IMG/VR virus record: IMGVR_UViG_3300025141_000089
Location: 1-61,539 of that record
Source of the DNA: a virus
Taxonomy: Duplodnaviria > Caudoviricetes
Direction: 5' to 3' (one strand)
DNA length: 61,539 bases
How positions within the stretch are numbered: the first letter of the stretch is position 1; every line of letters starts with the position of its first letter. The notes beneath the pieces were generated by a model. The model was not told the origin of the DNA. It did not search any database and saw only the letters and a list, made by a program, of their open reading frames with translations. Positions 16,692 to 45,173 of this stretch are shown in pieces. The position numbers and the translations under genes were made by a program.

Positions 16692-17498
16692 TTATCCTGT
16701 CATAAAGTCGATTGGGTATTCGTAGGTTAGTCGTAGTTCTTCTTCAAGTTTTTCAATCTCCTGTATTGCTTCTTGCGATATTTCGCCACCTCGTAGTTGA
16801 ACTCCACCCGGCAATTGAACCCCTTCAAACTTTGACATATTTGCACCCCATTGTTTTTTAATGAGTGAGGTTAAGTATTTCTTTAACCAAATATCATTGA
16901 ACACTTCAGAGAATTGTGAAGATTCTATTCTCACATATGCTTCTATTAGGAAATATTTCCCTTCAACAATATCGTTAGTCCAATCTCCGTCAATGTTTAA
17001 TTTATTTGTTATTTTATTGAATCGAATTATTTTTTCTGGTTGAAAGAAATCTTGAATCATGTTGATATATCGTTTAGTAGAATCATATCGCGCCAAACCC
17101 ATACTAGAATTAAATCCAAGTCCACGATTAATACCAAAATAATCCATTAAAGCCATTTGATAACGAACATCAAACATATTAATATTTGCAAATTGTCCAA
17201 ATTGGTGAATTTTAACAACATTTAAAATATCTTTACCAGTAATTTTGCTACCTGTTGCACCAACTGGTTGTCCGATAGATTCAACATCAACATATTTTCT
17301 TGCTTTATCCGTTGCAGTGATTTTATACGCAAATAGTTCCTTTTCTGCACCATCTGAATGGTATTCAGCAAAAAGTTCTAATGCTTCGTCTAATCGGTCT
17401 TCACATTGTTGCCTATCCACATTGATATCAACAACTGGTGAACCCAATTTCCGCAAAGAATAATCAATTATATCATCTCTAGATGCTGGTTTTGCCAT
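16692..17498 (-). CDS. gp13: Neck protein (head-tail adaptor)
   Basis: MAKPASR.....Y.LRKLG.PV..INVD..Q.EDR.DEAL..F..YH.DG and WLKKY.T.LIK.QWG.N..KF.GVQLPGGV. Confidence 0.95.
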   Translation of the reverse strand: MAKPASRDDIIDYSLRKLGSPVVDINVDRQQCEDRLDEALELFAEYHSDGAEKELFAYKITATDKARKYVDVESIGQPVGATGSKITGKDILNVVKIHQFGQFANINMFDVRYQMALMDYFGINRGLGFNSSMGLARYDSTKRYINMIQDFFQPEKIIRFNKITNKLNIDGDWTNDIVEGKYFLIEAYVRIESSQFSEVFNDIWLKKYLTSLIKKQWGANMSKFEGVQLPGGVQLRGGEISQEAIQEIEKLEEELRLTYEYPIDFMTG

Positions 17499-17503
17499 TA
17501 AAA

Positions 17504-17542: not shown

Positions 17543-17560
17543 GGGGGAAAGCAACAAATA

Positions 17561-18079
17561 CTATTCTTTGTTTTCTTCCTCTGGGTTTTCTGGCGGTTGT
17601 TCTTGTTTTCCTACGGCAACATCTAAATCGTGCATTACATCATAATCTATATTTTCGATGTAGTATTTTCGTGTTACTGGTTCTTCTGCTTCATCTGAAG
17701 TGCTTATTGTATAATTAGTAAATCCAGGCATTTGCAGAGGGCATGCGAGTTTAGGATAATCTAATTTTCCATATTCGTCTGCATTTGCAACCAAAAAGGT
17801 TTGTTTCCTATCACCACACCCACACCCACCACAAATATGTTTAGTAGGATCGGTAGTACTTTGATCTAAATATTCACAAGCCGGCAATTCCCCGCCAACA
17901 TTTTCATTGCCAAAACAACTTAATACCCTTAATTGTTTGATTGGTTTATTAATCTTATTGTTATTGATATTTCTTGATGCTAATGCAACAGCAAAACTTT
18001 GCACCATACTAAATGCTTTTTTAATTCCTCGTTGGTTTGGATCCAGCGGTGTTTTTCTAAATTTTGGTTTGTCTGTCAT
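17561..18079 (-). CDS. Small Cys-motif (probable metal-binding) hypothetical protein
   Basis: SCFG...ACEYL...HICGGCGCGD...KLACP (CxxCGC...K..CP pattern); GGAG RBS; has its own sigma70 promoter. Confidence 0.75.
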   Translation of the reverse strand: MTDKPKFRKTPLDPNQRGIKKAFSMVQSFAVALASRNINNNKINKPIKQLRVLSCFGNENVGGELPACEYLDQSTTDPTKHICGGCGCGDRKQTFLVANADEYGKLDYPKLACPLQMPGFTNYTISTSDEAEEPVTRKYYIENIDYDVMHDLDVAVGKQEQPPENPEEENKE

Positions 18080-18105
18080 AATATCTCCATAATAAAGTTT
18101 ATTAA

Positions 18106-18134
18106 ATTATACACTATAATATGTATGATGTCAA
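18106..18134 (-). promoter_or_regulatory. Perfect consensus sigma70 promoter TTGACA-17-TATAAT
   Basis: TTGACA at 18134-18129, a 17-nt spacer that itself contains the late-like CATACATA, and TATAAT at 18111-18106. Confidence 0.8.
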
Positions 18135-18141
18135 ATAAAAA

Positions 18142-19884
18142 TCATACAACTTTTAATAAAAGAGCCAGTCGTACATTATGTTCTTTGTCAAGTTCAGAAG
18201 CAGATACAACATCTGATGTCCACATGCTTGTGTTTAGTGATCCTATTTTGGTATTTTTTCTATTGTGTATATATGCAAGCGGTTTGGTGGGGGTTGTTCC
18301 CTCGACAAGTGTAGATGACCAATATGTTCCTTGCATTTCGTGAAATACGCCAGATGAACCCCTAGTAATATCAAGATTCTTAACATCAATCGAATCATAA
18401 GCATTCACATTAAATTCTTCACTCCATATCTCCCCATTATTTCTTTTTTGGGTTTTTGTCATCATAAATGCCAATAAGTTCTTACTTGGCACTACCAAGT
18501 TAAATCCTTTACCTATTCCGTTGATAGAAAAACCATTTCTAATTTGTTCAAACAAATTTAATGGTAATTTCATATTCCATGCACTATCCGCTTTTGATTT
18601 TTTTCTTTTATTAATTTTTAACTTGGCCATACTACCTTCGTGTAGGGAACTCAAACCATAATCAGATTCTAGAACAATAACCGCATATTGATTTTTAGCA
18701 AACGATCTAAAATCATTATGTTCTTCGTCTACAATTATAGATGATTGGACAATACCAGTTTTTGAATGTCCTAAAACTTCAACATCAGGATGAACTCCAC
18801 TTCCATTAAATATCCCAGCATATCTACCTGCAATTCTATATTCTCCTTCTTGCCAAGACTCTACAGTACTTCTAGAAATTGTTCCGTCCTTTAAAAAGGT
18901 TTTTATCATATCAATTTCTGATGTGTGGCCACAATTATATGGTGATCCATCTTGTCGCAATCCCATAAAATATCCATGACAAAATTCTATAGAAGATAAT
19001 TTACAACGGTATTCATTTCGATTAATATTTTCAACACATGCAGACACAATCCCCAACCCAGCCTGTTTCATTGTTTGATTATATCTTTTAATAAAATCTT
19101 CTTCAGGATTAGTTGCATTGTTTTGTATCAACAGATTATCAAACTTACTTTCTACGCCACTTCCACCCTGTGCTTCTGCGGTTTGATTGTTTGCATCGTT
19201 GCAATCCAGAATCTCTTCTGGATTAACAATATCATTACATGCCAATCCTCCTCCTTGATAATTGGCATAGATATTAGAATTGTCATTGCAATCATCACAC
19301 GATTCCGATGCCGAATCACAAACACATTCATCTAAATCTGCACATTGTTGTTCGCTGCACACATTTCTACAGTCATATATACCATTGCCCTGATACACAC
19401 AACAACTATTAGGATATCTAACATCCCACTTAGTGAGTACATCTTTTGCCGAAATTACTGTTTCTGGAACACCCGCGGCACCATTCGTACAAAAATTATA
19501 AACTTGTTCGAGCTCTGCAAATGCCGAACAATCTTCTGGTGACCATATCCCACCTATATCATTACATTGACATTGTGTTAGTTCTTTTAATCCTTCAAGA
19601 CTTGAAGGAATCCAAGTTTGTCTATCAATAGAGTTTAAATAAGCATCATGATTATCAAGATTACTACACGCACAACAACATCCCAGATCAGACAATGGTG
19701 GGCATTCAACATCTCCAACATTTTCTGCATATTGCCAATATCCATCATCTGCAATACAATCATAAAACGATACTAATTCATCCGACTGTGTTCCATCGGG
19801 TAAACAGCAGACACCGAATCCAGTAAATAAATCTTCTTTAATATCAACGGCAGTTCTTATTCTAGATCTAAATTGAATACTCAT
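18142..19884 (-). CDS. Cys-rich repeat protein with a degenerate C-terminal DUF1566/CLec-like domain; putative fibre/receptor-binding protein
   Basis: GVCC/GCCC/SCC repeats in the N-terminal half. The C-terminus has VPSKNLL...YWSST...AY...HNVRL, a degenerate version of LPSxxEL...YWSST...VRxxR. Confidence 0.65.
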   Translation of the reverse strand: MSIQFRSRIRTAVDIKEDLFTGFGVCCLPDGTQSDELVSFYDCIADDGYWQYAENVGDVECPPLSDLGCCCACSNLDNHDAYLNSIDRQTWIPSSLEGLKELTQCQCNDIGGIWSPEDCSAFAELEQVYNFCTNGAAGVPETVISAKDVLTKWDVRYPNSCCVYQGNGIYDCRNVCSEQQCADLDECVCDSASESCDDCNDNSNIYANYQGGGLACNDIVNPEEILDCNDANNQTAEAQGGSGVESKFDNLLIQNNATNPEEDFIKRYNQTMKQAGLGIVSACVENINRNEYRCKLSSIEFCHGYFMGLRQDGSPYNCGHTSEIDMIKTFLKDGTISRSTVESWQEGEYRIAGRYAGIFNGSGVHPDVEVLGHSKTGIVQSSIIVDEEHNDFRSFAKNQYAVIVLESDYGLSSLHEGSMAKLKINKRKKSKADSAWNMKLPLNLFEQIRNGFSINGIGKGFNLVVPSKNLLAFMMTKTQKRNNGEIWSEEFNVNAYDSIDVKNLDITRGSSGVFHEMQGTYWSSTLVEGTTPTKPLAYIHNRKNTKIGSLNTSMWTSDVVSASELDKEHNVRLALLLKVV

Positions 19885-19908
19885 GTTATATTATATATCC
19901 TTTTTTAT

Positions 19909-21564
19909 TTAAAACATACATTTTGGATAGGGGCAATTTGGAAATTTACAATCCATCCAAACACATTCGCCATCAGGTAATTGAACATTTGTGTATTCAT
20001 CTATTAAAATTTTTCTTGCCTCATCCTGCAAAATTTGTTGGACTTGTTGCCTATCCGGTTCTTCAAGGACACCCTCCGGCCGATCACATTCTTGGCACTC
20101 AGGACCGCACTGGCCGCAATTGCACGGGTAGCCAAGATCACAATCGGTCCCCGTACATTCAGGACAAGGGCCTACATCCATACCTTCATGACACTCAATT
20201 GGGCAAACATGCTGTTCCTTGATGCACGTTAAATAGTGATACTCATGCTGCGTGGCATCACACCAACCCACGTTCGACTCGCAACACGTGTTTGAAAGGG
20301 CCCAGGTAAGACACCAATGTAAACCACTGCGACACGCATGGCAGAGGATCGAGCTCCCAATGCACCCCATCACGTTTACCTGGCCTTCTATTGGCGGACA
20401 ATCGGGGCCGGGCAAGCAAGGTAAGCAATCTTCGGGATTCGAGAATATCTCCCAGCACGGAATTCCATCGCTATCGCGAGGATAAGCTCTACATTGATCC
20501 AAGCGGCCGCAATCAAAACGATCATACCCATCTTTAAATCCACTTGGACAGCAATCACCCCTACAAGTGCCGCGTATCCAATCCCCATCGCAATCACCTT
20601 CACCACAGCATTCCCTCCCATCTTTACAAGGACAGCAGGTTACAAAACGGGGGTTTACATCGCGAGGCACCCAGAACCAATCAGCGCAATCATAATCACC
20701 ACAAGACACACACATATCATCAGAACCTTCACAAACTCCTGGATAACATGTTTTTCGATAATGGAACGTACCTCCACGCTGATGACATGCATGCATATCT
20801 ACGACTTCGCAAGGCTCGTAATCAGGATGTTGCTGGCAACAAGCGCCTGGCGGGAATCTGCACGTCTCGCAATCTAAATTATTTATACCTACTGCAAAAC
20901 ATTCTGGAATCTCATTACCATCCTCATCAAAACAATTACATGTGTACACACCATCGCCTCGATCGTCCCAGTCATCACAAGTCGAATCTTCCCACGGGTA
21001 GTCCGTTACTCTACAACACTTATCATTATCACACCCCTCACCACCATCTTCAACACCACAATCACTAGAACCTAAATGAATTATCCCACCCAGGAGGCCA
21101 CAATTATCCCAAGGATCCCACTCATCAATATCACTAATCCACACACATTCTCCTGCTAAACAGCAAGATACATCAAATGTCGGTGTTGTGCATGTCTCAT
21201 CCCCGCAGGCTGTGGCACCCAAATAGCTCCCACCATCATCATTGCAGTGAGCCTCAGTCTTATAGCCACAGGTCATGTCTTGGTACGGACCTTCACAACA
21301 CGCACCATGTTGCATCGATGCATCGAAACAACCCAACGCACCATCTACATCAAACTCACATGCTGGGCAACATGCTGGGCAAGTTCCAATCTGATCGGCG
21401 CAAGTATATGAATTCCAGTATTCCTCGGTGCAATATCCGTCACCCTCTCCCGGCGTACAGGGCCATGGTGTACCACCAGCAACCGCACATTGACCATTGT
21501 CTAGGTTATCTAGACATGTGCCGTTAGGCAAACAGCAAGGGCCCTTTAAGCTTATATCACCCAT
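19909..21564 (-). CDS. Extremely Cys-rich GACC-repeat protein (paralogue of 21704-25336)
   Basis: 15 Cys in the first 100 aa; GPCC/GACC/VSCC units. Shares GTPWP, CDNDKCC...YTCNC.D..G..IP.C and the C-terminal TNVQLP.GECVWM.C...CPYP.C with the 1210-aa protein. Confidence 0.8.
   Translation of the reverse strand: MGDISLKGPCCLPNGTCLDNLDNGQCAVAGGTPWPCTPGEGDGYCTEEYWNSYTCADQIGTCPACCPACEFDVDGALGCFDASMQHGACCEGPYQDMTCGYKTEAHCNDDGGSYLGATACGDETCTTPTFDVSCCLAGECVWISDIDEWDPWDNCGLLGGIIHLGSSDCGVEDGGEGCDNDKCCRVTDYPWEDSTCDDWDDRGDGVYTCNCFDEDGNEIPECFAVGINNLDCETCRFPPGACCQQHPDYEPCEVVDMHACHQRGGTFHYRKTCYPGVCEGSDDMCVSCGDYDCADWFWVPRDVNPRFVTCCPCKDGRECCGEGDCDGDWIRGTCRGDCCPSGFKDGYDRFDCGRLDQCRAYPRDSDGIPCWEIFSNPEDCLPCLPGPDCPPIEGQVNVMGCIGSSILCHACRSGLHWCLTWALSNTCCESNVGWCDATQHEYHYLTCIKEQHVCPIECHEGMDVGPCPECTGTDCDLGYPCNCGQCGPECQECDRPEGVLEEPDRQQVQQILQDEARKILIDEYTNVQLPDGECVWMDCKFPNCPYPKCMF
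19952..19994. repeat. 43-bp direct repeat, copy 1 (copy 2 at 21753-21795)
   Basis: TCCATCCAAACACATTCGCCA(T/C)CAGGTAATTGAACATTTGTGT, 42/43 identical; encodes the shared C-terminal motif of the two paralogues. Confidence 0.9.
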
Positions 21565-21622
21565 TATATAATACTCCCATTAATCATTTGGTGAACAACA
21601 TGCAGTATATGGACCTTGCCAC
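21558..21622. repeat. 65-bp direct repeat, copy 1 (copy 2 at 25330-25394)
   Basis: 61/65 identical by manual alignment. Covers a gene end (WQGPYT.CCSP..stop), the GGGAG RBS and the ATG GGT of the next gene. Confidence 0.9.
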
Positions 21623-21704
21623 CCAAACAGCAAGCGCCCACATTTGAGCCTCTACTTGACGATCTTTCTGTCTTATCGTCCTTAATTGTATATTTATCCT
21701 TCAT
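21564..21704 (-). pseudogene. 46-aa collapsed Cys-rich gene remnant (deletion scar)
   Basis: MKDKYTIKDDKTERSSSRGSNVGACCLGGKVHILHVVHQMINGSII, TAATG-coupled at both ends. After GACCLG, an alternative frame reads WQGPYTACCSPND-stop, a copy of the C-terminus of the 691-aa gene. Confidence 0.6.
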
Positions 21705-24700
21705 TATAAGTCCTCTCTACAAACAGGATATGGGCAATCTGCTCCAACACATTCCATCCAAACACATTCGCCACCAGGTAATTGAACATTTGTGTGGGTA
21801 TCACCAAGATTTGGTGGGGAGATTTCTCTATATGATGTTGTATTGCATTCAGGACCGTTCGAACAATCACAGCTGTGAGAAGGGTCCATCCACCCATAAC
21901 ATTCTGGAGGATCCGCATCACACGCGTCTCCACCTCCTTCAGGGGGACAACAACAACAACAATCACAAGGTTGGTCATTACCATCACCACAATCATTGCA
22001 AACAGACCCTGCGATGCTAAAAGTGCATTCTTTACAGCAGCAATCACAATCCTCTGTTGGACACGACCCACCACATTGCAGAGTACTCGAAGCACAAGGT
22101 TCGCAACTACAATCACCGCATTCTCCGTCAGCAGGACAATTTCCATCGTGACTATATCCAGTAACGGTGCGCCAGCACCCTCCAGCCTCACTCTCACAAT
22201 CGCCACCGGGATATACACATCCACCACCAATTAAACATGTACAACATATTATCGGACAACAAACATCATGGCACATCCCGCAATCGGCCACTATCGCTCC
22301 GCCACCTGCAATACATTCTTCTGGAGTTTTTACTACACATTCATGGGTGTCGGTTGTATTATCAGTTTCACATGGAGCATTGCCTATACCACCATTTGGT
22401 GCTGTGCAACAAAGAATCAGTTCAGGTGTGTTATCGCACGGATATGCACAATAAAAATCGTCTGCTGCTGGAGGTTCAGTAATCCCAGGACAACAATCCA
22501 ATGGCGGGGGACAAGGTGGGCCCAGACCACATCCTGGTGGTTGATTGGAACACGGGAAATTACAACTACCGTCTGGACAACATTCTCTCCCCGCTTGTGG
22601 ACAATAGCAACTATCACACGACTCCATGCAGATATTTTCTGGTTGGCAACAAGACAAGCCATCAGGGCATCCAGCACCACCCATACATCCAGGCATTCCT
22701 GAACAAACTACACAATCATCACCAGAAACAAATTGACAAATTTCCCCAGAACATTCTTCATGATAATAAAAATCACCCTCCAAACTTTCACAATTAAAAG
22801 AAGATTCTTCGCTACAAATTGGTATGTTTTCAAAGTACCGACAACAAGCGCCCCAGTTGTTCTCCGTACAACTATTATTTTCTTGACACGTTTCCTCTTC
22901 TGTCCAATCACCATTGATACCATCACACACAGATTGAGTAACTTCTAAGCACCCTGGCGAATATTCTATACAACAAGCACCAATCACATCATCTTGTTCG
23001 TAACATTCGACACAATCACCATTTAAATGAAAGGTCCCATCCTTAATACCACAATCATAATCTACAGTCATTAAGCAAATATCTTCATCTGTATTTTCAT
23101 CATAATAACAACAAGCACCAAGTACGCATGGATTATCTGAACAATATTTATTAGGTATTAATAAATCATCACCATCACAAAATAAAGCATCCATACAGTT
23201 TCCTGTGAACAATCCATCCACTCTTGAACAACATGCAAAAGCAATATCATCTCCACAATCATCACAGTTTATCATCCCTTGAGCAATACAATCTGGAATT
23301 ATATCTCCACCATCATCCAAACAATTACATGTATAATCAACCCAATCAGTACAAGTTACAACCCCACTAATCGATTTGCAACACTTATCATTATCACATA
23401 CAATCCCATCACAATCATCGACACCAGTATAATATACCCCACCGTTGTTACTACAGTTTGATTGAATATAAGGTGAATAGCATGTACCTCCCAAACAACA
23501 AGAACCATCTGTTGGGTTATCACATTCTATATCTAAACAATCTTGGCCACTATAGAAAAAGTCTAAAGCCTCCTGACAATCCCATTCATTGATGCCATCC
23601 ACACATGTGCCAGATCCCTGTAATAAATGACAACACGCTCCCGAAGCAGGACAAGGATTATCATCACAATTAGTTCCAAAATTTCCAAAGGTATATACAC
23701 CACCACTAATATCTGCACAATCTGGTAAAGTAGTCGTCTCACATATAGGAGTAGAATTGTTAGTATAACAACAAGATCCCATACAAATTTCACAACCGTC
23801 CGCGCCGCATCCACTGCAATCGCCATCCGTGGCACACGATGGGCATCCAACTTCCGGCCCTATTGGTGTTCCTCCAAACTTATGGCAATTCTCGAATGAT
23901 TGGCTCATACAATATTGCGGGTCTCCTTCAAAACAGCAAGCACCATCTTCACATGTAAATATATCCAAATCTTCTCCAGGTGTTCCACTGTATACATCAA
24001 CACACGTTTCTTCTGTGTCAACCATGAAGCAAGCGAAACAGTTATGCATTGTTCCGTTGGGGAGTTCTCCCGGATAACAACAAACAATTTCGCTGCCATC
24101 GTTACAATTGACAGCGCACGAAGAGTCCACTCCCTGCCAATTTCCACCAGCCGCGACACAATCGATGTCAATCATGTTTGGATAACACCAAGGATCCTGA
24201 TTCAAACAACACGCACCAGTTGGTTGCTGAAAACAGTCAGAGTCTTCCGATAATTCCGAACACATTACCAAGTCATGAAAAATTCCACTGTAGCCCTCTT
24301 CACACTCATCCATAATATAAGAATCTGTACCATCTAGACCATCTGCACAGTTCGGCCCGCTGCGAAGATAACTGCAACATGCACCTATATTGCATTGTTG
24401 GTCACACGGATCGCCTTCATAAAAACCATAACCAGTATCAGTATAATAATTACATTGAAATCTAAATATGTTGTCTGAACAGGTTGAATTAGAACCACAA
24501 CATGCACCTATATTGCATTGTGAGTCACAAACCGTATCATTACCCACATAAGTTCCACCATTGCTTCCGCAGTTATCCTCAGTCCTATAGTCACAATCAC
24601 CATTCGTATAACAACAAGCGCCACGTTCAACCGAGTCGCAATCGTTACAATTTGTGTCAATCCATGTACAGGCATTTGACGGCGCGCAATTATCTTCACA

Positions 24701-25336
24701 CTCATTTACGGTAACATTTTCAACACAACTATCATCGTTTCCCTCAGGGTCAATATAACAACAGTAACCCACATTTGAGCCAGGGCATTCATTGCATTCC
24801 GATTGACAAAAGCCAGTAGTATCGCAATCAAAATCAGGACAACACAACGATGTACCAGAAGGAGTACTACAACAATCCTCACCATGATGCCATACAGTTT
24901 CGTTGAACGTGTCATCACCCCTTGACCAACAATCTGCATAATTCATATCGTTTTCACAAAGGTCTACCCCATCTTGCCCACAAGGATTGCATGAATATCC
25001 TGAACACCACTGACAACAACAGGCACCAAGATATGCATCGTCAGTGCCGGTACACCTATCAACATCGCAAGTCGTATCGTTACCCCAATATAAACCTCCC
25101 GCGTTATTGCAATTGTCAGGTGTCATCTGCTCACAATCATGATCTTCTATGCAACACGCACCACCACTCCAACATGTAAAATCACATGCTTCGCAACCGT
25201 TGATAGTACTATCGCAATCATATGAATCATAGTCGTCCGCGTTGGGCCATGGTGTACCACTCCAACCATCCACACATTGGCCAATGGTGGATATATTAAC
25301 ACATGAACCCAAGCCTTGCCAACAACAAGCACCCAT
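21704..25336 (-). CDS. Giant acidic Cys-rich GACC-repeat protein; putative virion fibre/appendage
   Basis: About a dozen exact GACC units and several variants (GSCC, GYCC, FACC). Each ~35-45-aa unit reads GACC-x3-8-C-x5-7-C-xx(x)-GG-x-[YFW]-x-G-x2-3-C-x3-4-C. Asp/Glu-rich, with no evident signal peptide. Confidence 0.82.
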   Translation of the reverse strand: MGACCWQGLGSCVNISTIGQCVDGWSGTPWPNADDYDSYDCDSTINGCEACDFTCWSGGACCIEDHDCEQMTPDNCNNAGGLYWGNDTTCDVDRCTGTDDAYLGACCCQWCSGYSCNPCGQDGVDLCENDMNYADCWSRGDDTFNETVWHHGEDCCSTPSGTSLCCPDFDCDTTGFCQSECNECPGSNVGYCCYIDPEGNDDSCVENVTVNECEDNCAPSNACTWIDTNCNDCDSVERGACCYTNGDCDYRTEDNCGSNGGTYVGNDTVCDSQCNIGACCGSNSTCSDNIFRFQCNYYTDTGYGFYEGDPCDQQCNIGACCSYLRSGPNCADGLDGTDSYIMDECEEGYSGIFHDLVMCSELSEDSDCFQQPTGACCLNQDPWCYPNMIDIDCVAAGGNWQGVDSSCAVNCNDGSEIVCCYPGELPNGTMHNCFACFMVDTEETCVDVYSGTPGEDLDIFTCEDGACCFEGDPQYCMSQSFENCHKFGGTPIGPEVGCPSCATDGDCSGCGADGCEICMGSCCYTNNSTPICETTTLPDCADISGGVYTFGNFGTNCDDNPCPASGACCHLLQGSGTCVDGINEWDCQEALDFFYSGQDCLDIECDNPTDGSCCLGGTCYSPYIQSNCSNNGGVYYTGVDDCDGIVCDNDKCCKSISGVVTCTDWVDYTCNCLDDGGDIIPDCIAQGMINCDDCGDDIAFACCSRVDGLFTGNCMDALFCDGDDLLIPNKYCSDNPCVLGACCYYDENTDEDICLMTVDYDCGIKDGTFHLNGDCVECYEQDDVIGACCIEYSPGCLEVTQSVCDGINGDWTEEETCQENNSCTENNWGACCRYFENIPICSEESSFNCESLEGDFYYHEECSGEICQFVSGDDCVVCSGMPGCMGGAGCPDGLSCCQPENICMESCDSCYCPQAGRECCPDGSCNFPCSNQPPGCGLGPPCPPPLDCCPGITEPPAADDFYCAYPCDNTPELILCCTAPNGGIGNAPCETDNTTDTHECVVKTPEECIAGGGAIVADCGMCHDVCCPIICCTCLIGGGCVYPGGDCESEAGGCWRTVTGYSHDGNCPADGECGDCSCEPCASSTLQCGGSCPTEDCDCCCKECTFSIAGSVCNDCGDGNDQPCDCCCCCPPEGGGDACDADPPECYGWMDPSHSCDCSNGPECNTTSYREISPPNLGDTHTNVQLPGGECVWMECVGADCPYPVCREDL
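21753..21795. repeat. 43-bp direct repeat, copy 2
   Basis: See 19952-19994. Confidence 0.9.
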
Positions 25337-25394
25337 TATATAATACTCCCATTAAACATCTGGTGAACAACACTCAGTATATGGACCTTGCCAC
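25330..25394. repeat. 65-bp direct repeat, copy 2
   Basis: See 21558-21622. Confidence 0.9.
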
Positions 25395-27427
25395 GTGCCT
25401 GCCATCGAAAGGCACTCTGAAAATGTTTGGCCGTCTATACACCCACTCTCACCCATACAACAAGCACCCTGCACTTGATCACAAACACCATCATCACTAC
25501 ACACTTTCCCAACCCACCACACACTTGGATAAAGACAATCATTCTCATCCACACCATCATAGCATTCGGTCGTAATTGGATTGCAGCATGCACCAGTATT
25601 GGTGGCACAACAATCAACTGCGTACAATCCAGTACATTCCGTACCAGGACCCATGAATATACCCTTGCAATCTGGGCAAGTATCTTCATCCCTGAAATGA
25701 TCTTCACAGGCTGTTCTGGTTATATCATCTACACATACCTCCTGAGTGTCATCAGTAGCGCTACCTCCTAAACAACATGCACCAACATATACCGTTTTAT
25801 CACAACAATCTAGAGTTGTATCCACACAAGATGAGTTACTAACAGGGATACCACCATAAACATGTTGACACGCAGCTGCTGTTAGTGGCGGAAGATTTAC
25901 ATCATAGTCCCCAGCAGGAACTGTTCCAACAGAATCACCGATACAATTTCCGTCTTTACAACATGCAATCCCAACACCACAAGGATTTATACAAGGCCAT
26001 CCTGTCTCACCCGGCACATAATTATAACCATAATAGCTTAAATCCATATTACAAGTAATAGCCTTAGGACCATCTTCAATTAATTTCACCAATCCTGTTA
26101 TGTCATCAAGACGATAGTAAATATGAGTCCAATATGTTGCTCCAAAACTATTACATTCATCTGCTCCAGCATTTTCAATACAAACTGCGTGGTTTTGATA
26201 TTCTCCCCAATCACCACCTTCACTACAGCAAACTCCCGGTGCAAGTCCATCAGAACCACAACCATCACCACATGCCATAAATTGATTCCACGATCCTCCT
26301 AAAGTTGGTTCTCCATCTAAATCATATGGACTATAAAGTTGGCCACAATCATTTTCTGTCATATAATCAATACAGTTTATTTTACCACCCGGCCAATTAA
26401 GGTCATCCCGCGGTTCATCTATATCCAAATAACAACAAGAGCCTAAACCAACAGAACCAAAACATTCATCCACACCATATGCACGATTGGCAATATTTGC
26501 CTTCCATGTTTTTCCAGCATCGTTGGTTAATAAACTAATAATATCCCACCCACAAGAAAAATATAGTTCGTTTTCATCAAAATAAATATTTTCTGGCCAG
26601 TCCCATATGTCGTAACCACCTAGATGTATAGTAAAATTAAATACCTCATTGGAGGTAAAATCTCCAGTAAATCCTTGAATTCCTATTGGTGTTTCAATTC
26701 GGAATATACTTCCACGTTTTACATCCATCATCATTCCTGTGCCGCCACCACATGTTGGGCCGGTATACCATTCACTTGGCTCTCCACCAGTTATTCCATA
26801 AATTTTTGGCGTGACTCTATCCGATTCAAAAAGTGGCATTGAAGGAACTCGTATAACAATTTCTTCTGGATCATATGAGTAACCAGTAGCGCCACCAGTT
26901 TCAGAAAAATAAACTGTGCCAAGAGAATCAAAAGTTAATCCAGTAGAATCTGCTGATGCTCCGGCCGAAATATAAGAAAATCTATTTCTTATCATCCCAT
27001 CTGTTGTTGCGCCTTCTTTGTATATGATATCACCACTGATACCTACAACATCATCTGTTTGATATGATTTTAATGTTCCTTCTGCCGTTATTCCGCGGAA
27101 ATAAAATGTAATACCATCTGTTATATTTCTAAATATACTAACTGGGTTTGTTCCACCATCTCCAGTAATAGCACCAGCGGTCGCGACCTCTCCTGTTGGT
27201 CCTTTTAACCCTTCGATTGTAATTTCTTTTCCATCGGAAAGAACTAATATTAAATTATCATCTTCAGTTCTACCAGAAAATACAAAAGTACCAGTTGCAC
27301 CTGTAGGTCCAGTCGGACCTGTACCACCCGTACCTGCCGGTCCAGTAGGGCCAGTTAAACCACGAAGACCTTTTGGTCCCATCACGGATCCTGGTGGTAC
27401 TACTGAACTACTTCCAATTACTGGCAT
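25352..27427 (-). CDS. Collagen-like N-terminus plus GACC-repeat C-terminus; putative tail fibre
   Basis: MPVIGSSS...GPKGLRGLTGPTGPAGTGGTGPTGPTGATG (Gly-X-Y), a fibre-type ..WP..I......FS.G.DIIS..T.DAG.TW segment, then GSCC/GVCC/GACC units. Confidence 0.75.
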   Translation of the reverse strand: MPVIGSSSVVPPGSVMGPKGLRGLTGPTGPAGTGGTGPTGPTGATGTFVFSGRTEDDNLILVLSDGKEITIEGLKGPTGEVATAGAITGDGGTNPVSIFRNITDGITFYFRGITAEGTLKSYQTDDVVGISGDIIYKEGATTDGMIRNRFSYISAGASADSTGLTFDSLGTVYFSETGGATGYSYDPEEIVIRVPSMPLFESDRVTPKIYGITGGEPSEWYTGPTCGGGTGMMMDVKRGSIFRIETPIGIQGFTGDFTSNEVFNFTIHLGGYDIWDWPENIYFDENELYFSCGWDIISLLTNDAGKTWKANIANRAYGVDECFGSVGLGSCCYLDIDEPRDDLNWPGGKINCIDYMTENDCGQLYSPYDLDGEPTLGGSWNQFMACGDGCGSDGLAPGVCCSEGGDWGEYQNHAVCIENAGADECNSFGATYWTHIYYRLDDITGLVKLIEDGPKAITCNMDLSYYGYNYVPGETGWPCINPCGVGIACCKDGNCIGDSVGTVPAGDYDVNLPPLTAAACQHVYGGIPVSNSSCVDTTLDCCDKTVYVGACCLGGSATDDTQEVCVDDITRTACEDHFRDEDTCPDCKGIFMGPGTECTGLYAVDCCATNTGACCNPITTECYDGVDENDCLYPSVWWVGKVCSDDGVCDQVQGACCMGESGCIDGQTFSECLSMAGTWQGPYTECCSPDV

Positions 27428-27441
27428 CTATTGTTCCTTTA

Positions 27442-30288
27442 TTATGCAAAGCACTTATCACAACCATTCACACAAACACAATTTCCACGGCTCTCACATT
27501 CAGAACACGGTACAGGCTCATCAAATTCTATACAACCAGAATCACAACAACAAGAGCAAACCATCCAAACTTGATTCGTAGAATTCTTATCATCTATGTA
27601 TGGTTGACAACCATGACTATTTGCTTTCCATGTTTCTTTAGTGCATATCGATTTATTTTTTGTTGGCAATGATTCAATTTTATGGGATACTGCCGAAGAT
27701 CCAACACACATCTCAGAATCAAAGTTATTAAAACACCTTTCATCTATATTTTTACAATCATTGACTATTCCACCATCCCCCAATGCACCTTCCCAACAAA
27801 CTCCAGGACAACAACAATTACAATCACCACTTCCAACTTCAATGGTCCATTGTTCGATATCATCTACTGGAGAAACTACATTACGGGGTTCTATACATTC
27901 GGATAAACTAAATTTACCAGAATATTGTTTTGCATCTGGAGCATCAACTTCTTTTCTGTATTCAGGAACAGAATATGTTTTTCTATCTTTTCCACTATTT
28001 CCTATAATTTTGTCTGGTTCTAAACTTGAAGACCTACTTGCCATGGTTTGAAAATATAAGTCGGCTACTTCTTGACTTCTTGATTGTCTTCCTGCTCCTG
28101 CTCCGCCAGCAAAATTCCACAAATCCCCCATTATATTATATTGTGAACAAACATCATTATTACAATCTCCATTTGCTACCCATATACCACCATTTCCAAA
28201 ACATTCCCCAAGATCCACACCAGGTTCACATCCCCAATCATAACAACAAGCGCCCCAGTTGCAGTTAATGTTTTCACATTGTTCACCTTGTGTCCAGAGG
28301 CCAAACATCCCAACACAATCTTCCCAAGTTTCCATTACACACTCATATGAATTCCCACCATCACCGACAGGCTTACAACATGCTGATTTTTGTTCATAAA
28401 CAGTTCCTGGATCACCCTTACAACATTCATGACAACTTCCATCCTGCAATATAACCGTACCACAACTGTTAGAATCTAAACAAGTATAATTATTTTGATT
28501 GGAGCCGGGGGCACAATAACAGTTCACATCCACACCACCCTCAGTACACAAACAATAACCCGAACCAGCATCGCATCCACCGCAATCTTCACTATCACAC
28601 GTTGGCATTTCTTGCGTCCAACCCGGACATCCAGTACATGGTGGTTCTGATGCACCAGAATGGCATTGATTATCAGAAAAAAGGCCTTTTGTTTCAAAAT
28701 CATGGGTTTCATCATTCCAAACCAAACAATTATAGGGTGCATAAGTTTGATCCACTACGGTTTCAGTTCCAGTAGTATTGTCCATTGGCACGGGGATTGC
28801 GTAATTTGCTCCAGCACATTTTGAACCAGCGCCCCAAAACATACCTTTAGAACCGCCCGCACCACCACTTGACCTTAATGTGTCACACACTTGAGCATTA
28901 CAATTAAAACACACTTCATCAACACAACAAGCACCCATCTCTTGTATACAACAATTAACATCTTCACATCCAGTATATGGAGGAATTTCGCCCCCCATCC
29001 ACTTACTATTCATTGACAGCGAACACTCAACAACACCCAATAGTACACATTCTCCATTCAAACAACAAGCGCCGCGATCCCCACACGCTGCGGGACAACC
29101 GCCCCACACTGACAAATCATCACAAGTAGTTAAACTAGCACCTGAATTGATAGGAATAAAAAATCCACCATAAACATTACACTTATGCTGTGTAGTTTCT
29201 ATGCAATTTCCGTTCACACAACACATTCCCTCATAATGACAATCCGTTCCTTCTGAACGATTTATACACGCAGTACTACCAGAGAACCACCCATCAATTT
29301 TATCACAATATTTTTTACTTACATAATCTAAACAACCCCTATAACCTGGACCTGTTATTCCATCTTGTTCACCAGTTCCTTTCCTACAATAACAACAAGA
29401 ACCCACAATAATTGGTTCTGGAATTAATGGACTATTAAATGTTATTCCTGGAAATTTATAAACACCCGCATTATGAGAACCACCATCATCATCAACATAT
29501 ATGCCACTATACATGGCAGTTAAACCCGCAGTAGAGTTATCTCCGAAATTTTCTTTATCTGTTATGCTACTAAAGGAAACAGATGTTCCATCAGGAGTAT
29601 TGATTCCAATCGTTCCTACGTGGCCTGGTGTTACACCCCATGATGTAAAGTTATTACTTGTTGATCCTTCACTGCCAGTTATCACAAATCTTTCTCTGTG
29701 TGTTAATATTCTAGCGGTTAATTGATCACCACTCCAAAATGTATTTGTTGCCGCATTAGCAGATAAGCCAGATATACTATTATTAATAAAAATTAATTCT
29801 CCAGTATTTCCAAGTATTCCATAATCGTGTGTAAGGCCTCTAATAAGAATAGTATCACTTTCTGGAGTTATTATACTAATATCATTTCCACTAACTGTTA
29901 AATTTCGGAAAGTTGCTGTACGGCCCTCTATAGATTTAAATACTTCTCCATAATAACCGGCATTTATAATAGAATATGATGTAGTAGGAAGATCTCCTGT
30001 CGAACCCCGAATACCTGTAACACCTAGAGTTGTTCCTTGATTAAGAAGAAATCCAGTCGTATCTCCTTCATATCCTCTAAGGCAAAATATAAGTTCATAT
30101 GTGATTCCTTCACCACTACTTCCAGATATACCTGCAATACCATATCCTGTAAATCCTATCGGACCTACTTGACCAGTCGTTCCTGTCAATCCCCCTGGCC
30201 CAGTGTTACCAGTAGCACCAGCAGGGCCAGTTATATAACCGACTCCTGATGGATTTGCTATTCTACTACTTCCTTGTATTGATGCCAT
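27442..30288 (-). CDS. Collagen-like N-terminus plus GACC-repeat C-terminus; putative tail fibre
   Basis: MASIQGSSR...GPAGATGNTGPGGLTGTTGQVGPIGFTG, then GSCC/GMCC/GACC/SACC units and a Cys-rich tail. Confidence 0.75.
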   Translation of the reverse strand: MASIQGSSRIANPSGVGYITGPAGATGNTGPGGLTGTTGQVGPIGFTGYGIAGISGSSGEGITYELIFCLRGYEGDTTGFLLNQGTTLGVTGIRGSTGDLPTTSYSIINAGYYGEVFKSIEGRTATFRNLTVSGNDISIITPESDTILIRGLTHDYGILGNTGELIFINNSISGLSANAATNTFWSGDQLTARILTHRERFVITGSEGSTSNNFTSWGVTPGHVGTIGINTPDGTSVSFSSITDKENFGDNSTAGLTAMYSGIYVDDDGGSHNAGVYKFPGITFNSPLIPEPIIVGSCCYCRKGTGEQDGITGPGYRGCLDYVSKKYCDKIDGWFSGSTACINRSEGTDCHYEGMCCVNGNCIETTQHKCNVYGGFFIPINSGASLTTCDDLSVWGGCPAACGDRGACCLNGECVLLGVVECSLSMNSKWMGGEIPPYTGCEDVNCCIQEMGACCVDEVCFNCNAQVCDTLRSSGGAGGSKGMFWGAGSKCAGANYAIPVPMDNTTGTETVVDQTYAPYNCLVWNDETHDFETKGLFSDNQCHSGASEPPCTGCPGWTQEMPTCDSEDCGGCDAGSGYCLCTEGGVDVNCYCAPGSNQNNYTCLDSNSCGTVILQDGSCHECCKGDPGTVYEQKSACCKPVGDGGNSYECVMETWEDCVGMFGLWTQGEQCENINCNWGACCYDWGCEPGVDLGECFGNGGIWVANGDCNNDVCSQYNIMGDLWNFAGGAGAGRQSRSQEVADLYFQTMASRSSSLEPDKIIGNSGKDRKTYSVPEYRKEVDAPDAKQYSGKFSLSECIEPRNVVSPVDDIEQWTIEVGSGDCNCCCPGVCWEGALGDGGIVNDCKNIDERCFNNFDSEMCVGSSAVSHKIESLPTKNKSICTKETWKANSHGCQPYIDDKNSTNQVWMVCSCCCDSGCIEFDEPVPCSECESRGNCVCVNGCDKCFA

Positions 30289-33200
30289 TAGTACCTCTGG
30301 TTAATTCCTTTATCTTCATCTCGAATAATATTTGGAAGTTTCCATAACTTATAATTACTATCGTCACTGCTTGGATATCTACCATCACATCTCACTAAAC
30401 GTATAGGTCTTACTTTATATGTATTTACTGTTCTGTTCTTTTTGCCTACTAGGAAATTATCAGAATTTCCACTTTGATTTATTTTTATTGCCCATGCTAA
30501 ACTTCCAGGATCTGCGGTTACTCCAAGAGGACCAGTCGCGCCGACAGGATTAATAATTCCTTCTCCTATTCCAGCAGTTAATCCTTTTGTTTCATCATAT
30601 GCACCAGTAGAAGTCCAATGCCAACCATTTAATGGCGTTCCACCCGCTTCAAGAAGGTTAGAATTTAAATTAAATTCATTATCAACAGTTCTAATGCAAC
30701 TATTTGCAATATATGAAAACTCATCATGACTTGGTAAATACCAACCAGAGATATTAGGTGAATTAGAACCTGTTATTCCCAAAGATATTAAATTATCATC
30801 ATATAATCTTACTGCACGAACCGCAGAAACATATCCGCTTGTTAATCCAGGACCAAAATCCGAACCTGTATATGTTCCATCATCATCATAATAGCCTTTA
30901 AGTAGTGCATTATCCGCACTAATAATTCTGATTGTATTATATAATCCCCAGTTTCTGTGCCACATACCATGTGCAGTTTGTGTCGGTTTAGTTTTTAATT
31001 TACTTATTGCATCACTTCCGTATATCCTAGATGCATTACATGAGCTGAATGTTCTTTCTGGAAGGATGGTTAATGAAACTTTACCCCTATTTTGGTCATA
31101 CCAATACCCTTCGGATTTAGGAAATACTTCATATTTATATTCATTGCTTACATCTTCATATATTCCAAGATTTTGGTTATATAAAGGTCCCCACGAACTA
31201 CCACGATTTCCCCAATAAAATTCATTTGTAATGCCATCCACATTATTATATTCTACAACTCTATCACCAGTTATTCCTATAGGATTTAATGAAATAATTA
31301 CATAATATGCATCATTTTTGTTGGTGTGTTTATTACAAGACGATTTAGAGTCAAATCCATAACTGTGCCAATCATATTTGGATTTATATTTAGATGGCAC
31401 ATTACCAATATTATCATAAGTAGATCCAAATCCGCCCCTCATCAAAGACTCCCATGAAGAAAGTTTAGAACCACCAAATCCCCTTGCTCCTATTCCAACC
31501 TCACCATCAGGATGATATAATCCAACAACCATACCACCCGCATATAAATCGCCAGGTTGTAAATCTAATCCTGTAACTTCTGGAATGCATCCAGAAGTGG
31601 TTGAATTTTCTCTGCAATCAATATCCCTACAATGTGAACCATGCCCTGCATAAAGATATCCATCTTCTATACAAGAAGAACCAAGTGTGTTATTATCACA
31701 AATGGCGCCACCTTTGCAACATGCACCAGTACCACCCGAACAAATTTGAACATCATCTTTATTAACACACGGAATACCAATTCCCATAAAGAATTTCTTT
31801 TGTCTTAAACAATTGGTTTTAGATATTTGTTCACAATGTCCTATACCATCACAGCATGCCCCTATTTCATTTTTTAAATTTTCGCACTGCATTTCTTCAC
31901 ACGAATTTGCCGTTCCGCCAAAGAGAGTGTGATAGTTTAATACATCGGCCAAATCTACACATTCATTAGCAGACATATTTTCATAACACACAACTTCTTT
32001 CGATTTTATATTTCTTACACAACATGGTCCGAGTTCATAGCAAGAACTTCCCGTTCCACCTGCACCACATAATGTGCCTGTACCATTATAATAACCAGGG
32101 CAATTAGCTTCTGTTGTATGAACACATATTCCTTTCCCCATACAACATGCACCAGTGCCTCCATCACCAAAATAGTAATTTCTGCCATCTTTATATCCCT
32201 CAAAAGGAAATGTACCATCATCGTCATAGCAATAATATGCATTATCAATATTACCTGTTCCGCCAGTTATACCATACCATTGGACCATATTTCCGTGCCA
32301 TGCATACTCGTTCGGACACCATGTTTCATCATATTCGCAAGGCAACCAAAAAAAGTTTATAATATCAGTTCCACCACTCCAACATGGAGGTTTGTTTAAG
32401 GGCCATATAATATTTTTTTCTGTTTGACTGTTGGTGTACCATGGCGGGAATTCTCCACTAGTGGTAGCACCATGAACAACCAAACTAAATGCTTTTGCTA
32501 ATTCTGCATCACTAACACCATTACCAACAGGGCCATTTCCTGTATATCCAAAACTTGCACCCTTAAAATTTAATGAAACTTCTCCTGTATATCCAGTAAC
32601 ACCAGAAATACCATCTATTTGCCTCATATTAAGTACGAAAACTTTAGCATTGTTTGGGTCGATAGGCACAGATGGTGCATATAATGGCACATCCACACCA
32701 GTTTCTCTAATATCATAATCAGCACCAATTTTGAGATATTTTGCCTTTTCTGTAAAGTTTGTAACTCTAACATCAATAGCATTTGCTCCACTTGGAAGCC
32801 CCGAACTTGTCGCCATGTCGTATTTTGCACCACTAATTCCTGCAAGGTTCGACCCAGAAAGGCCCACCAATTGCCCCGCGGCACTATCGGTATCAGTTCC
32901 ATCAATATTTAAGTATCCAAAATTTCCTGGATCATATATGATGTTAATTGTATCTAAACTTTCGTTTTGTTGTAAAGATAATGCGGGGCCAGTAACCTCA
33001 ATCACTTTTAATACAAGTGAACTTATATTATTATCAGAATCTCTTCCTTGTACAAGTGTGACGCCCATACGAGAAGAGTCATTAATATTTTGTCCATCAA
33101 TTAGTGGATACCCACCACCTGTTGGCCCTTTAATTCTTGTTGTTGTGGTGTAACTACTAGTCCAACGGGTCTCGTTTTCATCTACCAATTCAAATATTGT

Positions 33201-33410
33201 ATGAAGTTTATCGCCCGCAATGGTAGCATTACCATCGGCATCAACAAGATACATGTTGGTGATATTACCACCACTAAATCCCGTTGCACCTGTGTATCCA
33301 TATCCTATTGGACCTGTAGCACCTGTGCCGCCAGAAGCACCGGTCGGGCCAGTAACATGTGTTGCTCCGATTGGTGTAAAGTGACTGCTTCCGTGTACTA
33401 TTGCTACCAT
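30288..33410 (-). CDS. Collagen-like N-terminus, GACC repeats and C-terminal DUF1566 (CLec-fold) domain; putative receptor-binding fibre
   Basis: MVAIVHGSSH...GPTGASGGTGATGPIG; four GACC/GPCC units; GWYLPSHDEF...WHWTST...AWAI...K.R...KVRPIR. Confidence 0.78.
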   Translation of the reverse strand: MVAIVHGSSHFTPIGATHVTGPTGASGGTGATGPIGYGYTGATGFSGGNITNMYLVDADGNATIAGDKLHTIFELVDENETRWTSSYTTTTRIKGPTGGGYPLIDGQNINDSSRMGVTLVQGRDSDNNISSLVLKVIEVTGPALSLQQNESLDTINIIYDPGNFGYLNIDGTDTDSAAGQLVGLSGSNLAGISGAKYDMATSSGLPSGANAIDVRVTNFTEKAKYLKIGADYDIRETGVDVPLYAPSVPIDPNNAKVFVLNMRQIDGISGVTGYTGEVSLNFKGASFGYTGNGPVGNGVSDAELAKAFSLVVHGATTSGEFPPWYTNSQTEKNIIWPLNKPPCWSGGTDIINFFWLPCEYDETWCPNEYAWHGNMVQWYGITGGTGNIDNAYYCYDDDGTFPFEGYKDGRNYYFGDGGTGACCMGKGICVHTTEANCPGYYNGTGTLCGAGGTGSSCYELGPCCVRNIKSKEVVCYENMSANECVDLADVLNYHTLFGGTANSCEEMQCENLKNEIGACCDGIGHCEQISKTNCLRQKKFFMGIGIPCVNKDDVQICSGGTGACCKGGAICDNNTLGSSCIEDGYLYAGHGSHCRDIDCRENSTTSGCIPEVTGLDLQPGDLYAGGMVVGLYHPDGEVGIGARGFGGSKLSSWESLMRGGFGSTYDNIGNVPSKYKSKYDWHSYGFDSKSSCNKHTNKNDAYYVIISLNPIGITGDRVVEYNNVDGITNEFYWGNRGSSWGPLYNQNLGIYEDVSNEYKYEVFPKSEGYWYDQNRGKVSLTILPERTFSSCNASRIYGSDAISKLKTKPTQTAHGMWHRNWGLYNTIRIISADNALLKGYYDDDGTYTGSDFGPGLTSGYVSAVRAVRLYDDNLISLGITGSNSPNISGWYLPSHDEFSYIANSCIRTVDNEFNLNSNLLEAGGTPLNGWHWTSTGAYDETKGLTAGIGEGIINPVGATGPLGVTADPGSLAWAIKINQSGNSDNFLVGKKNRTVNTYKVRPIRLVRCDGRYPSSDDSNYKLWKLPNIIRDEDKGINQRY

Positions 33411-33423
33411 AATAATATACTAC

Positions 33424-34764: not shown

Positions 34765-34776
34765 TAATCATCTCCG

Positions 34777-44699: not shown

Positions 44700-45173
44700 C
44701 TATAATGAATCGTTGTATATTATGTTAAATTTAACTTGATATCTCTTACGGGATTTTTGTGTGATAATTTTATCATAAGAATGTCCTGTCTTATTTTTAA
44801 ATCTATTTGCTATTATTGTGAATATCTGTTCTTTGGCAAATTTGTTTTGATTCTTTTTTTCATTCTTTTTATATTTAGTGGAATCTAAAACAAAAGACAT
44901 GTTAGACGGACTATATGTTTCAATGTATTCTAATACATCTTCAAATATGCCTTTCATCATCGTCATAGCCGTTCCAACAGACTCGTTTCCTGTTCTGTTT
45001 TGACGATAATTATTATAGAAATCTATAACAACATCATCTGTTTTTTTACATTTAACTATTAAGAGTGTAGTATATAACCCATATGTTTTTGGATGATTTC
45101 TATTATATATTACTAAAAAATTATTTTCCGTATCTGAAACCATAACTTTTCTTTCGGGTATTATGGTGTGCAT
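44700..45173 (-). CDS. Hypothetical protein (basic, AT-rich)
   Basis: 157-aa ORF overlapping the end of the giant gene; composition unlike its neighbours. Confidence 0.6.
   Translation of the reverse strand: MHTIIPERKVMVSDTENNFLVIYNRNHPKTYGLYTTLLIVKCKKTDDVVIDFYNNYRQNRTGNESVGTAMTMMKGIFEDVLEYIETYSPSNMSFVLDSTKYKKNEKKNQNKFAKEQIFTIIANRFKNKTGHSYDKIITQKSRKRYQVKFNIIYNDSL

Follow-up and report, generated by a model that had tools for sequence, protein, structure and literature searches.

An array of cysteine-rich GACC-repeat genes in the baseplate-to-neck region of an uncultured marine T4-like myophage

The virus record IMGVR_UViG_3300025141_000089 (Duplodnaviria; Caudoviricetes), all 61,539 nucleotides of which make up the window analysed here, derives from an uncultured marine T4-like myophage and carries, between its baseplate wedge and neck genes, an array of six genes encoding proteins with a short cysteine-rich repeat, the GACC unit. 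This 61.5-kb record is, by CheckV, an estimated 34% complete. Judged by their sequences, the six genes and a seventh, for a protein of 2745 amino acids, most likely encode modular tail appendages of the lineage to which the phage belongs. More specifically, we propose, with a probability of roughly 0.6, that the proteins form trimeric virion fibres or adhesins in which disulfide-stapled GACC beads present lectin-like heads and of which the distal cassettes are fast-changing. On this reading the array would add a further form to the known phage fibres or adhesins, made from repeats of a family as yet undescribed in databases. Its members, each named here by its length in amino acids (aa), are the following.

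30288..33410, minus strand: p1040, 1040 aa; I-x-G-S-S N-terminal peptide, collagen-like run (aa 21-38), Cys-poor shaft, four GACC units (aa 419-600) and a head (aa 601-1040)
27442..30288, minus strand: p948, 948 aa; I-x-G-S-S peptide, collagen-like run of ten triplets (aa 21-50), shaft, five GACC units (aa 353-716) and, past these, a Cys-dense C-terminus with CCC runs
25352..27427, minus strand: p691, 691 aa; I-x-G-S-S peptide, collagen-like run of seven triplets (aa 17-37), shaft and four GACC units (aa 398-686), the protein terminating in a unit
21704..25336, minus strand: p1210, 1210 aa; nearly pure Cys-rich protein (192 Cys) with 12-13 GACC units (aa 2-868), the first starting at residue 2, and, after these, a Cys-dense tail without units whose Cys runs reach CCCCC
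19909..21564, minus strand: p551, 551 aa; Cys-rich cassette (78 Cys) with three GACC units, a paralogue of p1210
18142..19884, minus strand: p580, 580 aa; Cys-rich N-terminal third (27 Cys in the protein) with one weak unit (aa 24-61) and a C-terminal part homologous to the p1040 head

An earlier note on this DNA, made from the letters alone, had described six tightly packed genes here, and their positions, lengths and common strand were borne out; the spacing between neighbours ranges from a 1-nt overlap to 139 nt. The proteins were said to be acidic and to have no evident signal peptide. Both statements hold: all six have a pI of 4.05-4.93, and none of the seven Cys-rich proteins (0/7) has a signal-peptide-like stretch, nor was a transmembrane hydrophobic stretch found in any of the seven. 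Cysteine makes up 4.7, 14.2, 15.9, 6.4, 8.2 and 3.2% of p580, p551, p1210, p691, p948 and p1040, respectively, as against 0-3.5% in the other 36 open reading frames (ORFs) tabulated. In the same order the tetrapeptide GACC occurs 0, 2, 12, 3, 3 and 3 times (23 in total), and in those 36 ORFs its count is zero. The array is not an assembly artefact: contigs from each of the four public marine metagenome runs used, of 24 listed, span all 30 bins of positions 17000-34800, and two of these four runs, which may represent the source sample, show no differing letter in the matched pieces. None of the runs listed was of RNA.

The GACC unit is 38-42 aa long, contains six conserved cysteines and is present in 29-30 copies across the six proteins. 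Its cysteines are spaced as CC-x(3-10)-C-x(7)-C-x(11-14)-C-x(4-5)-C, the CC pair being preceded by G-A, and GG-x-aromatic-x-G stands in mid-unit; there is no conserved His or Asp ligand column. When 26 units from the window were aligned, C5, C6, C12, C20 and C34 were invariant and C39 was present in at least 90% of copies, the units being 23-50% identical among themselves. Copies were counted at an independent E-value (i-E) <= 0.01 as the union of the matches to two hidden Markov models (HMMs), one built from the window units and the other from 2672 units of database hits. This gave one unit in p580, three in p551, 13 in p1210 (12 by the window profile alone), four in p691, five in p948 and four in p1040; an HMM of bacterial units found 26 in the same six proteins. 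The units stand head to tail, and runs of three or more adjoining units are seen in p1210, p948 and p1040. The idea that all six genes share the unit was right for five of them but barely so for p580, whose single unit is marginal. The Cys-rich set, moreover, comprises the six genes but also extends beyond them to a further ORF:

45161..53398, minus strand: seventh Cys-rich protein, 2745 aa, acidic, 296 Cys (10.8%), two GACC units; located in the baseplate module between the gp5-region tail protein and gp25

This protein matches no Pfam or PHROG family. Relatives are found in 5/5 related viral records as open frames of 500 to 2606 aa, with the first ~560 aa alone conserved outside the closest record.

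The p1040, p948 and p691 proteins are paralogues with a common plan, in which an I-x-G-S-S peptide, also kept in their orthologues, is followed by a short collagen-like run, a Cys-poor shaft and four or five GACC units. The kinship of p691 and p948 is one part of this, and p551 is related to p1210 in turn, with 37% identity over 150 aa and, in the final 30 aa, 67%. That the proteins carry collagen anchors had been suggested in the earlier note and is supported by 7, 10 and 6 uninterrupted G-x-y triplets at the N-termini of p691, p948 and p1040, as well as by matches of PHROG tail-fibre families to the N-termini of p691 and p948 (E 3.4e-5 to 7e-3). The runs are short: the Pfam Collagen model has no match on the array proteins and the NCBIfam models of collagen-like adhesins score far below cut-off.

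Two of the proteins, p1040 and p580, end in what structure prediction and profile comparison identify as a C-type-lectin-like domain of the Lcl_C type. The first of these domains is defined as follows.

30291..31610, minus strand: head of p1040 (aa 601-1040), C-type-lectin-like fold with large low-confidence insertions, from an AlphaFold2 (AF2) model and fold search

The last 440 aa of p1040 recur in 25 shorter database proteins without annotation. When the model of this head was compared with 48,161 chains (VIA), the Bacteroides ovatus fimbrial protein BACOVA_04982 (4eps) ranked first, with a Z of 12.2, 201 aligned residues and 17% identity, although this is a pilus subunit from a gut bacterium, only the C-terminal part aligns and the query model is of low confidence. 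In second place came the C-terminal domain of the Legionella pneumophila protein Lcl (8q4e), with a Z of 8.9, a root-mean-square deviation (rmsd) of 3.0 A over 124/131 residues and 20% identity, and further down were FGE, the variable proteins of diversity-generating retroelements (DGRs), invasin/intimin and many C-type lectin domains. By Foldseek the best row was again 4eps, at E 0.14, and a PDB profile search with the head alignment gave a single chance-level row (E 0.68). The Pfam family Lcl_C (PF07603) matches 8/18 members of the p1040 family (best E 1.3e-4) and 2/9 members of the p580 family (best E 6.1e-4), the latter having eight metagenomic homologues. Profile-profile alignment with hhalign indicates that the heads of p1040 and p580 are homologous (probability 95.5%, E 1.3e-8); with the p580 sequence by itself in place of a profile, the comparison returned nothing. 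Of the collagen anchors combined with lectin tips that had been predicted, both are supported in p1040, the tip through its fold match to 4eps and 8q4e, and just the tip in p580, through the hhalign comparison.

The likeness of p1040 to Lcl goes beyond the head, since Lcl too has a collagen-like region followed by an Lcl_C-type domain. According to PMC11162425, Lcl forms trimers and is a collagen-like adhesin with affinity for glycosaminoglycans. There are also differences. The phage proteins lack a signal peptide and are encoded in a phage tail module, a shaft and four GACC units stand between collagen and head, the head of p1040 has 440 aa against 131 and contains large insertions, and the sequences from the window fall below any Pfam score.

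The position of the genes also favours a tail appendage. The portal protein of the phage shares no more than 50.2% identity with that of any of the 2587 phage records that it matches, and the closest portals are those of cyanomyoviruses and pelagimyophages. On the minus strand the gene order begins with a gp53-like gene, a 714-aa tail protein, the 2745-aa ORF, gp25, gp6 and a Baseplate_wedge protein (436 aa), continues with proteins of 656, 330, 789 and 446 aa, the six array genes and a 172-aa ORF, and then runs through gp13, gp14, gp15, gp17, gp18 and gp20. The slot of the array is thereby flanked by baseplate wedge genes (gp6, gp25) on one side and by gp13/14/15 on the other, as had been expected of a T4-like phage. 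Its boundaries, and a conventional fibre-like gene within it, are these:

41481..43265, minus strand: gp6-like baseplate wedge gene, upstream boundary of the slot (phrog_219, E 5e-81)
16692..17498, minus strand: gp13-like head-tail adaptor gene, downstream boundary of the slot (phrog_211, E 2.4e-38)
34777..37146, minus strand: p789, conventional tail-fibre-like gene beside the array, 789 aa, 0.4% Cys (phrog_4492, E 6.6e-41)

In T4 the slot between baseplate wedge and gp13 holds gp9-gp12 and wac. No PHROG or Pfam match to gp9, gp10, gp11, gp12 or fibritin (wac) was found for the six array proteins or for their neighbours of 330, 446 and 656 aa. The earlier note read the array as standing in place of the usual T4 fibre genes. 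It was correct about the slot but not about its special nature, as wac and g10-12 are, according to excerpts of PMC2984593, generally missing in marine cyanomyoviruses, in which orphan structural proteins occupy the same slot, and p789, which resembles fibre genes from the tails of Stenotrophomonas and Ralstonia phages at 26-28% identity, lies beside the array.

Related loci show the same arrangement. A scan of IMG/VR with p1040 identified eight loci, 46-90% identical and with the same gene order, namely gp6, four to five Cys-poor genes, a p1040-like gene (~3% Cys) and a p948-like gene (6.5-8.5%). A p691-like gene is present in the seven loci that reach that far (L008 ends earlier), its product having 681 to >2460 aa with 6-11% Cys where whole, and L002 has a p1210-like gene as well (1246 aa, 15.7% Cys). 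The orthologue of p691 is expanded in L003 (15838-23136) and L006 (15915-23306), where it encodes >2430 aa with 10.6-10.9% Cys and 11-14 G-x-CC motifs before running off the locus; this expansion suggests that appendage length is highly variable in the clade. No stretch was found when IMG/VR was scanned with peptide words of p1210, and a tblastn search of 50,697 deposited phage records with p1210, p948 and p1040 returned nothing.

Could the array products be something other than virion parts? They might be late proteins that are released at lysis or act in the cell, as decoys, as aggregation or matrix-binding factors or as blockers of the host surface. The p1210 and p551 proteins have neither the N-terminal peptide nor the collagen run, and the bacterial members of the family are either secreted in free form or exposed at the cell surface and carry dockerin or T9SS sorting domains, both of which would suit such a function. 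The genes, however, are packed and co-oriented within the baseplate-to-neck module, their synteny is kept in all eight loci, three of the proteins have collagen-like N-termini matching phage tail-fibre families, and the heads are of an adhesin type typical of receptor-binding proteins. We regard a role outside the virion as very doubtful.

In the reading that we prefer, that of trimeric virion fibres or adhesins, the collagen runs would join the chains into trimers and the N-terminal I-x-G-S-S peptide would dock the appendages on the baseplate or neck. Three disulfides would lock each GACC unit. These could form in oxidising conditions, whether at or after lysis in oxic seawater or by the action of an oxidase whose gene would lie in the two thirds of the genome beyond this record. 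The locked units would serve as rigid beads that space and present carbohydrate-binding heads, and may themselves bind in proteins that terminate in one. The distal genes p1210, p551 and p580 would specify the fast-changing, host-facing part, renewed by cassette duplication and recombination.

Clues to the fold of the unit come from modelling and from two types of database search. Three consecutive units of p1210 (aa 738-871) were modelled with AF2 from a 35-row alignment of phage and bacterial triplets, giving a mean predicted local distance difference test score (pLDDT) of 81.5, with per-block values of 81-89 for the first unit, 74-86 for the second and 90-91 for the third. In the model each unit folds as a beta-hairpin followed by a short helix and one more strand. 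When the sequences of all PDB entries were searched by profile, iRhom1 and iRhom2 were matched and no other proteins, at E 1.4e-4 with the phage profile, while an independent profile made from 48 bacterial units picked out iRhom at E 6.3e-5 and 0.015-0.017; in the full profile match all six cysteines align to iRhom2 570-606. When the same 48,161 chains were searched by structure, without use of sequence, the best match was iRhom2 568-608 (Z 3.0, rmsd 2.2 A, 41 residues), with iRhom1 next. What counts here is that two independent methods agree on one segment. The segment belongs to the iRhom homology domain (IRHD), an extracellular domain that is stapled by eight disulfide bonds and was called structurally 'unprecedented' by its solvers, as stated in the extracts of PMC11248996.

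From the alignments against 8snl_B and 9xy4_A, the IRHD seems to hold one full and one partial GACC-like unit. The IRHD of iRhom1/2 (8snl, 9xy4) is nonetheless a single compact domain in a polytopic rhomboid-like membrane protein, whereas the phage units are arranged in tandem in proteins without a transmembrane segment, and the link is a resemblance of modules, not membership of a family. Weak but reproducible, this likeness hints at a wider family to which the animal IRHD may belong, and small disulfide-rich beads of this type may serve as stable scaffolds in design. Because the IRHD, the only solved relative of the unit, is disulfide-stapled, we infer by analogy that three disulfides per unit are to be favoured over metal sites.

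Two attempts to approach the disulfides through cysteine numbers were uninformative. Pairing could not be read from co-loss of cysteines, as 2318/2324 fully aligned units keep all six, and the parity of Cys counts failed as a sign of disulfide bonding, even numbers being seen in 78/155 bacterial-type hits. Counts are even in 14/21 complete Cys-rich frames of the phage clade, one of these frames, on the minus strand, being probably spurious.

Phage receptor-binding appendages are usually Cys-poor and fold in the reducing cytoplasm. A conserved clade with 3-16% Cys in seven proteins of a structural module therefore presents a folding paradox.

Disulfides are not without precedent in the virion of a myophage. 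In the cyanomyophage Pam3, cryo-EM, mass spectrometry and dithiothreitol (DTT) treatment showed that the fibres are disulfide-linked to the wedge, and disulfides are found in baseplate and fibres alike, according to the excerpted text of PMC9942802. Pam3, however, has by the same excerpts a handful of inter-subunit bridges, as compared with 6-16% Cys and an intradomain six-Cys repeat in the proteins considered here, and no sequence relation between the two was found.

Several results weigh against the fibre reading as a whole or against its parts. Taking the heads first, the model of the p1040 head is poor overall (mean pLDDT 55.2), though its confident core still gives the alignments to 4eps and 8q4e, and the p1040 and p580 of the window itself have no Lcl_C match at E <= 1. 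As to the unit, Foldseek searches of PDB and BFVD with the unit model gave no row at E <= 0.001, and in absolute terms the likeness to iRhom is slight (Z 3.0; i-E per domain 0.02-0.4), low structural scores being expected for ~40 residues. Matches to the redox families Thioredoxin (PF00085), DSBA (PF01323), Evr1_Alr (PF04777) and Glutaredoxin (PF00462) were found in 0/5 records each, these records being 14-34% complete; the Evr1_Alr and Glutaredoxin searches took in the window, those for Thioredoxin and DSBA covered the five related records, and in a control with PF04777 0/14 control genomes matched. The T4 late-promoter word TATAAATA is not enriched in the window (nine occurrences against 6.96 expected) and occurs in none of the array gaps. 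Finally, the Cys stretches outside the units include runs of CCC to CCCCC and look closer to metal-thiolate sequence than to a disulfide domain.

This last point bears on a rival proposal, in which the units, and the poly-Cys stretches outside them most of all, would be metal-thiolate modules (Zn, Fe or Cu) able to reach their fold in a reducing cytoplasm, so that the appendage would be stapled by metal instead of disulfides. Of the 452 cysteines in the six proteins, 178 lie within units and 274 outside recognisable units, in dense irregular stretches; a simple regular-expression screen of these non-unit Cys-rich parts for a second repeat type gave no convincing family. CCC-CCCCC, C-x-C and C-x-x-C spacings mark the tails of p1210, p948 and p551 and are also seen in the 2745-aa protein, the lack of a signal peptide implies folding in the cytoplasm, and the redox-family searches, in records 14-34% complete, brought up no oxidase gene, all of which is as metal binding would predict. 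The unit itself tells otherwise: its bacterial members are mostly secreted (110/145 with a signal-peptide-like N-terminus), its solved relative is disulfide-bonded, six cysteines are not a multiple of the usual four-ligand site and a conserved His or Asp ligand column is missing. Taken together, these points make a metal-stapled appendage quite unlikely.

A bolder form of the disulfide reading is also conceivable, in which the tail appendages of this whole marine T4-like lineage contain structural disulfides by the several hundred for each set of proteins, the seven having ~750 Cys between them, and are built from a mini-domain shared with Planctomycetota surface proteins and the IRHD. In the absence of export signals such a lineage would need either undescribed cytoplasmic oxidative folding in its host or maturation of the virion by seawater oxidation. 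We consider this somewhat unlikely. Were it true, the virions would be infectious only after oxidation in seawater or a bacterial host would possess an undescribed cytoplasmic oxidative-folding route, and the GACC unit would be the first prokaryotic and viral relative of IRHD modules.

The GACC unit is not confined to phages but belongs to a large repeat family, present in secreted bacterial proteins, that neither Pfam nor NCBIfam models. The 26 aligned units were made into a profile, the HMM that the earlier note had proposed building, which on a search of 1.84 billion representatives matched 6419, 2909 and 593 proteins at E <= 1e-3, 1e-10 and 1e-30, respectively, with tandem arrays of up to 38 units per protein; among the best matches, all six Cys are kept in the 2318 of 2324 fully aligned units mentioned above. 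Neither Pfam nor NCBIfam recognises the unit in the phage proteins or in bacterial proteins with up to 23 copies, and 8/10 bacterial GACC proteins checked have no Pfam domain whatever. An undescribed domain is present in at least 6419 protein clusters. Our literature searches on the GACC unit, on Cys-rich phage virion proteins and on T4-like phages of Planctomycetes turned up no mention of either the unit or the phages described here.

By a crude hydropathy test, the 110 signal-peptide-like N-termini among 145 M-started hits contrast with 0/7 among the phage proteins, and some bacterial members end in dockerin, T9SS sorting or FlgD_ig domains. All hits that bear an organism name (4/4) come from Planctomycetota, the named carriers including a Planctomycetota MAG (metagenome-assembled genome; P0009) and two Phycisphaerae MAGs (P0020, P0014), which agrees with the suggestion in the earlier note that GACC repeats abound in secreted proteins of Planctomycetota (Phycisphaerae). 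One Phycisphaerae/Planctomycetota genome has 42-72 unit matches in many frames. In a genome census that covered Planctomycetota, units were present in 4/121 genomes of a phylum-wide sample (phage profile, E <= 1e-5) and in 14/101 genomes of a class-wide sample (bacterial profile, E <= 1e-6).

The Planctomycetota and phage proteins share the tandem six-Cys unit xGACCxxxGxCxxxTxxxCxxxGGxYxGxGTxCxxxxC, as seen in P0009, P0014 and P0020. The phage versions differ in lacking signal peptides and dockerin, T9SS or FlgD_ig ends, in having more divergent units and in being fused to collagen stems and lectin-like heads.

Do these likenesses identify the host? On one view, which takes further the suggestion of host capture or mimicry in the earlier note, the array would be recently captured DNA for surface proteins of a Planctomycetota (Phycisphaerae) host, used in molecular mimicry. 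That every organism-named family member is from Planctomycetota or Phycisphaerae, that one such genome has at least 72 unit matches and that the nearest ESM-Atlas clusters are viral and Planctomycetota would fit this. The G+C content of the array is higher than elsewhere in the window, which follows from amino-acid composition: G+C at third codon positions (GC3) takes values of 0.20-0.38 in the six genes and 0.14-0.33 in the others, their choice among synonymous codons equals that of the rest of the phage, and TGT makes up 77% of Cys codons against 86%. With codon usage fully phage-like, recent capture from a host is not supported. Furthermore, the genes are kept across the phage clade down to 46% identity (46-90% in the eight loci), the best bacterial match to a phage protein is only 24-31% identical, and the unit is patchy in the phylum (4/121) and class (14/101), with sampling confined to Planctomycetota. 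Recent capture is, on this evidence, highly unlikely, and the claim that capture or mimicry points to the host is likewise not supported.

Variability within the clade increases towards the distal end of the array. Compared with L002, the closest relative, identity is 94% for p789, 90% for p1040, 81% for p948, 73% for p691 and 60% for p1210, and p551 and p580 have no orthologue there. Comparison of the DNA sequences revealed two repeated segments around the divergent cassettes.

21558..21622, minus strand: duplicated junction on the upstream side of p551; its 65 nt match 25330-25394 at 94% identity
19948..19994, minus strand: common 3' end of p551 and p1210, 47 nt, 96% identical to 21749-21795, encoding TNVQLP.GECVWM.C

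The junction at 25330-25394 comprises the end of p691, a spacer and the start codon of p1210, and the 139-nt gap before p551 holds its repeat together with a remnant of the end of a GACC-unit gene. A related strain, seen in one public run, has 87 nt in place of 888 nt of p1210 (21807-22696), and its p948 contains several 12-nt insertions, a case of natural variation in the length of the Cys-rich parts. Near-identical junctions around the divergent p551 and p1210, together with this variant, point to an array that changes by cassette duplication and recombination at conserved junctions. Such cassette turnover is usual for host-recognition genes. The combination of collagen stem, bead spacers, lectin-like head and junction repeats offers a model for how host recognition may be renewed in marine phages.

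A few further features of the window deserve mention. Between the array and gp13 lies a 172-aa ORF (17561-18079, minus strand) with six Cys (3.5%) and no PHROG or Pfam family. A tRNA scan found none. Tandem repeats in the DNA, of period 36 and 54 nt, are located at 60118-60277 and 60571-60948, within an ORF on the plus strand (59624-61420) that encodes an acidic, Cys-free protein of 598 aa with no Pfam family. Also on the plus strand, and thus opposite to the baseplate genes amid which it lies, is a 160-aa basic ORF (57626-58108) with a TnsA-like endonuclease N-terminal domain (E 3.5e-18), which may be an insertion of the homing-endonuclease type.

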